Origin: a virus
Taxonomy: Duplodnaviria; Heunggongvirae; Uroviricota; Caudoviricetes
Strand: one strand, 5' to 3'
Length of the DNA stretch: 6,611 nt
IMG/VR virus record: IMGVR_UViG_2744054854_000002
Position 1 is the stretch's first letter. The number at the start of each line of letters is the position of its first letter. Made by a program: the position numbers and the translations under genes. A model generated the notes under the pieces. It did no database searches, was not told where the DNA came from, and worked only from the letters and a program-made list of their open reading frames with translations. Of the stretch, positions 1 to 5,497 are shown piece after piece.

Positions 1-99
1 GTGGCGGCGGCACAGTTGGTGTGGCGGCCTCAGTCCGGAACAATTTGAAAACAAGAACCTCGCTTAGGCCTGTGTCCATATTACGTGGGTAGGATCATC

Positions 100-255
100 A
101 TGCGTGAATATCCAAATGGCGAAAAAACACACCTTACTGTAATGGCCGCAGGGTTTCCATCTCTGACCGGAGATCATAAAGTCATTTATGTAGCCGCGGA
201 TCGACATGTTACTTCAGAAGAAATTCTGGAAGCAGCAATAAGGCTCTTGAGTTGA
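100..255 (+). CDS. ynfN: Small 51-aa protein, YnfN-like (Qin-type prophage small protein)
   Basis: ATG at 100-102 with AGGA at 91-94 (5-nt spacer); 51 codons to TGA at 253-255; translation MREYPNGEKTHLTVMAAGFPSLTGDHKVIYVAADRHVTSEEILEAAIRLLS. Too short for the supplied ORF track. Identity rests on memory of K-12 YnfN and on the conserved neighbourhood (gnsB, ydfO, ynfO, Nu1 homolog). Confidence 0.5.
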   Translation: MREYPNGEKTHLTVMAAGFPSLTGDHKVIYVAADRHVTSEEILEAAIRLLS

Positions 256-395: not shown

Positions 396-426
396 GGAAA
401 GTCATAACAGACTAAAAGAGGAAATG

Positions 427-599
427 ATGAATATTGAAAACTTAAAAACAAAAGCAGAAGCAGATATTTCTGAATATATAACAAAAAAATTATTGAACTT
501 AAGAAAAAGACCGGGAAAGAAGTTACCAGTATTCAGTTTACCGCACGGGAAAAAATGACGGGTCTTGAAAGCTATGATGTCAAGATTAATTTAATCTGA
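427..599 (+). pseudogene. gnsB: GnsB/GnsA-family gene with a frameshift in an A7 homopolymer
   Basis: ATG at 427 with SD-like AGAGGA at 417-422. Frame A reads MNIENLKTKAEADISEYITKK then runs to TGA at 556-558. The other frame, from the A-run at 483-489 onward, reads IIELKKKTGKEVTSIQFTAREKMTGLESYDVKINLI and ends at TGA 597-599. Together they give 57 residues colinear with GnsB as I recall it (MNIEELKKQAETEIADFIAQKIAELNKNTGKEVSEIRFTAREKMTGLESYDVKIKIM). Span is 173 nt; 174 (A8) would restore one frame. Confidence 0.6.
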
Positions 600-626
600 T
601 GTATTCAATAATAAAATTTATCCATA

Positions 627-657
627 AACCTCGTTTTTACGGGGTTTTGTTATATTT
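627..657 (+). terminator. Candidate rho-independent terminator downstream of the gnsB-like gene
   Basis: Stem AACCUCG (627-633) pairs with CGGGGUU (640-646) including one G-U pair; 6-nt loop UUUUUA; followed by UUUUGUUAUAUUU. Orientation-specific: the reverse strand is followed by an A-rich tract. Confidence 0.35.
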
Positions 658-750: not shown

Positions 751-1161
751 TTAGCGTGGTAAGATCTGTGTAGTTTTCTGGATGCTTTCAGTAAATAGTA
801 ATAAATTATCAAAGGTATAGTAATATCTTTTTTGTTCGTGGATATTTGTAACCCACCGAAAAACTCCTGCTTTAGCAAGGTTTCTTCTGTATTCCTGAAA
901 TGTGATCTCTCTGGATTTCAGCTTATTAGAGGTCGTTTCTATAAGATGCCTATCCTTTGAAAATTTGACAGACACAATGTTTTTTAGGCCCTTTAATAAC
1001 ACTGTATTATCATTTTTTAATACAATATGAACATTCTCTGTGGCTAAATAGTAAATGTAATGTGAGACATTGTGACGTTTTAGCTCAGAATAAAACCATT
1101 GATAGTTTAAATCGTTTCGAACTTTATCAAATATTTGTTTAAAAATGACTACCTGATCCAT
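751..1161 (-). CDS. ydfO: DUF1398-family prophage protein (YdfO/YbcV-like, often labelled putative envelope protein), 136 aa from the second ATG
   Basis: Track ORF 751..1176 (141 aa). The first ATG is preceded by C-rich sequence with no SD. The second ATG (1159-1161) has GGAAGG with a 7-nt spacer, giving [18 protein letters not shown]... Family assignment is from memory of K-12 YdfO/YbcV and from gene order. Confidence 0.7.
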
Positions 1162-1218: not shown

Positions 1219-1452
1219 TCAATCTGGTCTGACCTGTTTTCTGAGCAATTCAGTAATGTCACTCTTTTCTTTGTTTGCTTCAGAAGAAACTCTTTTTTCT
1301 GAGCACAGTCTCCGGCGGCAGGCTTCAATGACCCAGGCTGAGAAATTCCCGGACCCTTTTTGCTCAAGAGCGATGTTAATTTGTTCAATCATTTGGTTAG
1401 GAAAGCGGATGTTGCGGGTTGTTGTTCTGCGGGTTCTGTTCTTCGTTGACAT
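1219..1452 (-). CDS. ynfO: 77-aa ribbon-helix-helix-like small protein (YnfO-like), immediately upstream of the ydfO-like gene on the same strand
   Basis: Track ORF 1219..1452. Basic N-terminus MSTKNRTRRTTTRNIRFP followed by NQMIEQINIALEQKG and SGNFSAWVIEACRRRL, matching the beta-strand/helix/G-turn/helix pattern of Arc/MetJ/CopG folds (visual inspection only). 42-bp gap to the ydfO start. No strong SD. Confidence 0.55.
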   Translation of the reverse strand: MSTKNRTRRTTTRNIRFPNQMIEQINIALEQKGSGNFSAWVIEACRRRLCSEKRVSSEANKEKSDITELLRKQVRPD

Positions 1453-2386: not shown

Positions 2387-5118
<2,732 letters not shown>

Positions 5119-5284
5119 CGCCACGACGGCATCCACGAAGGCGACAGAGGCAGCTGGCAGTGCGACGGCAGCAGCTCAGAGCAAAAGTACGGCGGAATCT
5201 GCAGCAACGCGCGCTGAGACAGCGGCAAAACGGGCAGAGGATATTGCATCCGCCGTGGCGCTTGAGGATGCGAGCACGACGAAA

Positions 5285-5497
5285 AAGGGGATAGTACAGC
5301 TCAGCAGTGCGACCAACAGCACTTCCGAGTCACTGGCGGCAACGCCAAAAGCCGTTAAGGCCGCGTATGACCTGGCTAACGGGAAATACACCGCACAGGA
5401 TGCAACGACAGCACAGAAAGGGATAATCCAGCTAAGCAGCGCGACCAACAGCACGTCTGAAACGCTGGCGGCAACGCCAAAGGCAGTAAAAGCAGCC
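5285..5497 (+). repeat. Tandem in-frame duplication of the conserved tail-fiber motif (two ~81-bp copies, 132-bp period) inside stf
   Basis: Copy 1 at 5285-5365 encodes [27 protein letters not shown]; copy 2 at 5417-5497 encodes [27 protein letters not shown]. Nucleotide copies are similar but not identical. Lambda Stf, as I recall it, has one copy. Confidence 0.8.

Follow-up and report, generated by a model that had tools for sequence, protein, structure and literature searches.

A recurrent, probably neutral one-nucleotide deletion in the A8 tract of gnsB in a Qin-type prophage of Escherichia coli

The window analysed here, 6,611 bp in length, is the whole of contig LWDC01000012.1 from the draft Escherichia coli assembly GCA_001640145.1, and it contains part of a defective lambdoid prophage of the Qin type. 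From left to right we identified the following features.

1–95, plus strand: right end of an IS3 element inserted in ynfN; the contig begins inside the insertion sequence
97–255, plus strand: 3′ fragment of ynfN, disrupted by IS3, upstream of gnsB (from the PGAP annotation of the equivalent region in NZ_AP021894)
416–421, plus strand: Shine–Dalgarno-like AGAGGA, 5 nt ahead of the ATG at 427 (read from the sequence)
427–599, plus strand: gnsB
427–558, plus strand: gnsB open reading frame as encoded, 43 amino acids, stop codon at 556–558
483–489, plus strand: A7 homopolymer in place of the usual A8; the 1-nt deletion lies here, and the run forms an A_AAA_AAA heptamer in the phase of gnsB
489–599, plus strand: C-terminal 36 codons of gnsB, IIELKKKTGKEVTSIQFTAREKMTGLESYDVKINLI and then a stop, in the −1 frame
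626–657, plus strand: terminator-like hairpin (9-pair stem) with a T-rich tail, 3′ of gnsB
751–1161, minus strand: ydfO
1219–1452, minus strand: ynfO
right of ynfO, in this order: nohA/Nu1, terminase large subunit and gpW
within 4486–5300: portal gene, truncated near 5114–5117, with an internal part of a side-tail-fibre gene fused to it

Genomes without the IS3 insertion align with the window from position 96 onwards. In the sister genome 2018-10-1CC (NZ_AP021894), where the insertion in ynfN is also present, the IS3 transposase coding sequence ends at the equivalent of position 67 and the ynfN remnant comes next; PGAP describes the equivalent of 97–255 as ‘ynfN, incomplete, missing N-terminus’. 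Towards the right of the window, the portal gene ends after about 210 codons, and the side-tail-fibre part to which it is fused has alanine-rich repeats. This fusion indicates a deletion of head and tail genes, which the Qin prophage of K-12 also has, with other end points. The window also carries a private non-synonymous polymorphism in ydfO, in which codon 120 (window 803) is TTA (Leu) rather than the TCA (Ser) found in all ten compared genomes that still align there; the resulting YdfO S120L variant is absent from every other contig of the protein collection that we searched.

The hairpin 3′ of gnsB is the one intrinsic-terminator-like site found, against 0.3 expected from shuffled sequences. 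A simple scan of positions 200–800 found no sigma-70-like promoter, so gnsB may perhaps share a transcript with the cold-shock gene cluster upstream. No Rfam family reached its gathering threshold anywhere in the window.

The start of intact gnsB is placed by PGAP at the second ATG, equivalent to position 427. Read in frame 1 from the ATG at 424 or 427, the window encodes MMNIENLKTKAEADISEYITKK and then the out-of-frame LLNLRKRPGKKLPVFSLPHGKK, up to the stop at 556–558; from the ATG at 427, the part ahead of LLNLRKRPGKKLPVFSLPHGKK is MNIENLKTKAEADISEYITKK. The first 21 residues of the 43-amino-acid product are native to GnsB, and the other 22 are read out of frame. The remainder of GnsB lies in the −1 frame, which begins at 426 and ends at 599 with KKIIELKKKTGKEVTSIQFTAREKMTGLESYDVKINLI and a stop. 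Residues 1–21 and 22–57 are in different frames, and an uninterrupted open reading frame of about 57 codons with the C-terminal FTAREKMTGLESYDVKI segment is missing from the locus, the frames switching at 483–489. A model-made first-pass annotation of the window, based on the letters alone, had located the split within a run of seven A residues and proposed that an eighth would repair the gene. The tract does read as exactly A7, and the addition of one A yields a single protein of 57 or 58 amino acids (57 codons and a stop); the normal allele has ACA AAA AAA ATT (A8) at this point. Independent translation of the C-terminal half was considered and rejected, because that frame has no ATG, GTG or TTG before Met45. 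As judged from its sequence, the A7 form is a predicted pseudogene allele of a GnsA/GnsB family member.

Once restored, the 58-amino-acid protein matches Pfam family PF08178 (GnsAB_toxin) over the whole model (positions 1–54; 120.2 bits, E = 3.3e-35), far above the curated membership cut-off of 27 bits, and the open reading frame as encoded matches model positions 1–32 only (50.3 bits). The restored protein also aligns, over its full length, with GnsA of known structure (4XO1 and 4XO2), and it is identical to the 57-amino-acid UniRef entry GNSB_ECOLI. The gnsB identity given in the first-pass annotation is borne out by the Pfam match, the structure match and the PGAP name of the A8 allele, and the colinear 57-residue frame on which its argument depended does exist.

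The gene corresponds to gnsB (ydfY, b1550) of the K-12 Qin prophage, from which it differs by a single A in otherwise identical sequence (95 nt compared for K-12 and 261 nt for A8 genomes). The K-12 gene order cspI-ynfQ-ynfR-ynfN-gnsB-ydfO-ynfO-nohA is common to the neighbourhood of the window, which differs from K-12 Qin in its A7 tract and split reading frame, its IS3-interrupted ynfN and the end points of its morphogenesis-gene deletion. The chromosomal relative gnsA (yccL), which lies beside ymcE, encodes a protein that is about 68% identical, with a nearly invariant C-terminal FTAREKMTGLESYDVKI motif. Whereas gnsA overlaps ymcE, gnsB has no adjoining ymcE counterpart. The equivalent run in gnsA is only A6 (GCG CAA AAA ATC), which makes it less slippage-prone than gnsB. 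Between gnsB and gnsA, dN/dS is 0.13 overall, 0.21 in the N-terminal part and 0.09 in the C-terminal part (codons 23–57, which are out of frame in A7). These low values indicate that selection has acted on the single-frame A8 form and that the truncated product is without the more constrained part of the protein. As related in papers that cite the original work, overexpression of K-12 gnsB makes the membrane richer in unsaturated fatty acids and suppresses the defects of fabA6(Ts) and secG-null strains, and overexpression of gnsA has the same phenotype (Sugai et al. 2001, cited in bioRxiv 10.1101/2024.03.27.586906 and PMC10607373).

Across all 6,611 bases, the closest complete genome, 2018-10-1CC, differs from the window by three single-nucleotide polymorphisms and by having A8 in place of A7. 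It has the same IS3 insertion in ynfN, the same fusion of portal and tail-fibre genes, and an intact A8 gnsB. In the window, 1 nt is thus deleted from the tract of gnsB that is natively A8, and the identification of the feature as this known gene with one nucleotide missing is far beyond chance.

The first-pass annotation had also proposed a comparison with other E. coli gnsB alleles. For this we used a 95-nt query, in which a single gap brings identity below 99%, so that identity bands count alleles. Among 2,136 complete E. coli genomes with this gnsB, 38 have A7 (1.8%), four have A9 and the rest, about 98%, have A8; the A8 carriers include K-12 MG1655, C600 and ATCC 8739. In a 261-nt comparison the A7 allele is 100% identical in 37 complete genomes (38 with the 95-nt query), and over those 261 nt it is otherwise identical to A8, which indicates that each A7 event is recent. 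In a collection of 15 billion proteins, 2,217 index blocks and no fewer than 1,000 contigs contain the exact 43-amino-acid product. Most of these contigs are 2–5 kb long, as expected of short-read assemblies.

The frameshift is already known in the sense that it is flagged in public annotation. In Ecol_AZ155, RM10042, ER1709 and 01_3327, PGAP assigns the A7 allele to the GnsA/GnsB family and labels it ‘frameshifted’. These RefSeq alleles are exactly the A7 allele of the window, and the background of the window strain differs from theirs (YdfO S120L and the IS3 insertion in ynfN). Newer PGAP annotation renders the equivalent of window 474–599 as an intact 41-amino-acid ‘GnsA/GnsB family addiction module toxin’ (WP_349812768.1) that begins at ATA. 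Given that no conventional start precedes Met45 in that frame, we treat this call as an annotation artefact. The allele thus has three public labels (frameshifted pseudogene, 43-amino-acid ‘protein GnsB’ and 41-amino-acid ATA-start ‘toxin’), and because the newer intact-toxin label and the older frameshifted label are applied to one and the same DNA, public annotation is inconsistent.

The A7 allele recurs, as it is found on clearly distinct prophage backbones. It occurs in the K-12 derivative ER1709, the other K-12-derived genomes among the matches listed being A8; on the backbone of a clade marked by an IS3 insertion in rrrQ; in CX12, which has a different left flank in the lysis region; in 2018-05-2CC, which has a K-12-like deletion between terminase and tail fibre; in EC1 and 01_3327, where ydfO is divergent and the terminase module is of the DUF1441 type; and in the window, the sister strain of which is A8.

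The allele is also heritable. Twelve complete genomes have in common a 2,751-nt stretch, 100% identical, that includes the junction of IS3 with rrrQ. All 12 have A7, and no A8 genome with this junction was found among the complete genomes compared. The clade was sampled in humans, in a dog and in a lake; its genomes come from different countries (the two that we traced were from China) and belong to many accession series. One of them, GZ04-0086, is a Unicycler hybrid assembly of Illumina MiSeq and MinION reads and was assigned to phylogroup A and ST44 (PMC7031209). The uniformity of the clade, together with this hybrid assembly, indicates that A7 is stably inherited in that lineage.

Other 8-nt tracts of the same prophage provide a measure of how often such runs change length. 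The T8 tract at the 5′ end of ynfN, just upstream of the window, is T7 in 416 of 1,570 complete genomes (26%), including every K-12 strain listed; the K-12-type ynfN being T7, PGAP calls ynfN of ER1709 ‘frameshifted’. The intergenic T8 tract between rzpQ and cspI is T7 in 127 of 2,110 genomes (6%) and is longer in EC1, and the A8 tract of rzpQ is A7 in 6 of 1,504 genomes (0.4%). Beside these tracts the frequency of A7 in gnsB (1.8%) is unremarkable, and the pattern is what slippage during replication of a fragile tract would produce under weak selection or none. The share at gnsB is about four times that of the rzpQ control, which leaves room for a modest selective or mutational excess at gnsB. 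In E. coli genes the heptamer AAAAAAA is under-represented in all frames, for which proneness to indels or transcriptional slippage has been suggested as a reason (PMC4066793).

We consider it probable, at roughly 78%, that the window carries an ordinary, recurrent and probably neutral loss of 1 nt from the A8 tract of Qin gnsB, which makes the gene a pseudogene. One A would have been lost from A8, most likely through strand slippage during DNA replication. Translation would then depart from the GnsB frame after residue 21 and end 22 unrelated residues later. As the conserved part of the protein, its C-terminal two thirds, would not be made, the truncation argues for a loss-of-function (pseudogene) allele. 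The locus belongs to a decaying prophage, with ynfN split by IS3 and the portal gene truncated and fused, and in this context the loss of gnsB probably had little or no effect on fitness. Full-length GnsB would still be produced in trace amounts at most, by spontaneous −1 slippage of the ribosome or by addition of an A by RNA polymerase; published reporter data suggest that this share might amount to a few tenths of a percent. The first-pass annotation, too, had put an inactivating mutation at a tract prone to slippage first among its readings, and this is upheld.

We regard it as unlikely that the strain is truly A8 and that its draft assembly undercalled the homopolymer by one base. Several circumstances make such an error conceivable. 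The window is a complete 6.6-kb contig of a draft assembly, and our literature search found no publication on LWDC01 or GCA_001640145.1; the private haplotype of the strain is on no other contig of the collection, so A7 has no replicate on this background; and the gnsB tract is the sole 8-nt run in play in the comparison of the window with its relative. The excess of deletions over insertions (38:4) fits an undercalling bias as well as it fits a biological one. Undercalls of this kind do exist in public data: UTAK-1 and VE-V11-M (NZ_AP027978) combine A7 in gnsB with the rare A7 in rzpQ (6 of 1,504 genomes), a coincidence expected about 0.1 times, so that systematic homopolymer undercalling is likely in these two genomes. 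Some complete long-read assemblies probably carry gnsB A7 only as an undercall. The T7 alleles of ynfN in ER1709 and of the intergenic tract in E300082 were also considered as assembly errors; both are common natural polymorphisms and do not count as signs of error. Against an error in the window itself, the other 35 runs of at least 5 nt (11 of them of at least 6 nt) have the same length as in the nearest relative, and A7 is real elsewhere, both in the 12-genome clade with its Illumina hybrid assembly and in more than 2,000 index blocks made up mostly of short contigs. It is thus quite likely that A7 is real in this draft contig.

We think it improbable that the A8 tract is a preferred breaking point at which recurrent loss of gnsB is mildly adaptive, or that A7 is a hypomorph retaining traces of GnsB. 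If loss were mildly adaptive, the benefit could be the removal of a prophage-encoded modulator of membrane-lipid composition; if A7 were a hypomorph, the traces would arise by −1 slippage on A_AAA_AAA.

Less probable still is an outright selected deletion, either because GnsB is a toxin whose partner was lost with the IS3 insertion in ynfN or because loss was beneficial in some other way; selection against toxicity had been raised in the first-pass annotation. The Pfam and PGAP family label reads ‘GnsA/GnsB addiction module toxin’, and ymcE-gnsA is listed as a type II toxin–antitoxin pair; the label stems from this reported pair. In addition, both ynfN and gnsB are disrupted in the window, A7 is fixed in the internationally spread 12-genome clade marked by IS3 (of which one typed member is ST44), and A7 is about four times commoner in gnsB than in rzpQ. 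However, the gene upstream of gnsB is ynfN, not a homologue of ymcE, and BLASTP gave no alignment between YmcE and YnfN at E ≤ 100; this lack of similarity gives no ground for seeing in YnfN an antitoxin like YmcE. In the sister strain gnsB is intact next to the same ynfN insertion, and in seven of the eight other A7 genomes with annotation that we examined ynfN is annotated as intact, the eighth, ER1709, having the native T7 of K-12. Plasmids that overexpress gnsA or gnsB (ASKA clones) rescue growth defects rather than kill cells (bioRxiv 10.1101/2024.03.27.586906 and PMC10607373). The purifying selection on gnsB (dN/dS 0.13) and an A7 frequency inside the range of neutral tracts nearby also speak against an adaptive loss. 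Given the dissimilarity of YnfN and YmcE, the intact gnsB of the sister strain and, as indirect evidence, the growth rescue by the overexpression clones, the idea of selection against toxicity is not supported.

We give very little credence to recoding, in which A7 would still yield full-length GnsB by programmed −1 frameshifting or by transcriptional slippage that adds an A. The layout invites the idea, as positions 483–489 are exactly in X_XXY_YYZ phase (zero-frame codons 484–486 and 487–489) and a simulated −1 slip yields wild-type 57-amino-acid GnsB, residue for residue. In E. coli, A_AAA_AAA is among the motifs at which frameshifting exceeds 0.1% even when stimulators are absent, and insertion sequences make use of it (PMC4066793); indels in A runs can be partly corrected by transcriptional slippage (PMC1088944). 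The −1 sites of IS1- and IS3-family elements and of dnaX (A_AAA_AAN) are of the same heptamer kind and phase, and a slip would likewise fuse the frames. In contrast to those sites, gnsB has no hairpin, pseudoknot or upstream Shine–Dalgarno sequence, its split lacks conservation, and A8, the unsplit form, is both ancestral and dominant. The 81 nt 3′ of the heptamer (490–570) have a folding energy of −9.9 kcal/mol, whereas shuffled versions average −12.1 (z = +0.87), so that the real sequence folds no better, and inspection by eye of the 20 nt upstream of the heptamer showed no Shine–Dalgarno-like or GGAGG-like sequence. [quoted passage not shown] Nor is the two-frame arrangement conserved: in about 98% of alleles A8 keeps the gene in one frame, the A7 alleles are recent, and gnsA is a single frame with A6. 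Trace full-length GnsB from A7 is plausible; a functional recoding signal is not. The low rank that the first-pass annotation gave to a programmed frameshift agrees with the missing stimulator and with the single A8 frame in 98% of alleles.

Phase variation, an option in the first-pass annotation in which the tract would be a contingency switch toggling gnsB at high frequency, is equally hard to credit: A7, A8 and A9 all occur in nature and A7 is present on several backgrounds, but switching within lineages is rare, with A7 in 12 of 12 genomes of the rrrQ-marked clade, A8 in all K-12-derived genomes among the matches listed save ER1709, A9 in four genomes only and A8 in about 98% overall, and other 8-nt tracts of the prophage, non-coding ones included, vary as much or more. 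By the standards of phase-variable loci an A tract of 8 nt is short, and mismatch repair is normally functional in E. coli.

The main use of the pseudogenising deletion is as a caution, both for annotation and for the quality of homopolymers in assemblies. Where toxin–antitoxin systems or the presence of gnsB are counted across E. coli, tract length should be handled explicitly. The biological weight of the finding is small: it is an example of a small prophage gene that decays at a fragile homopolymer.
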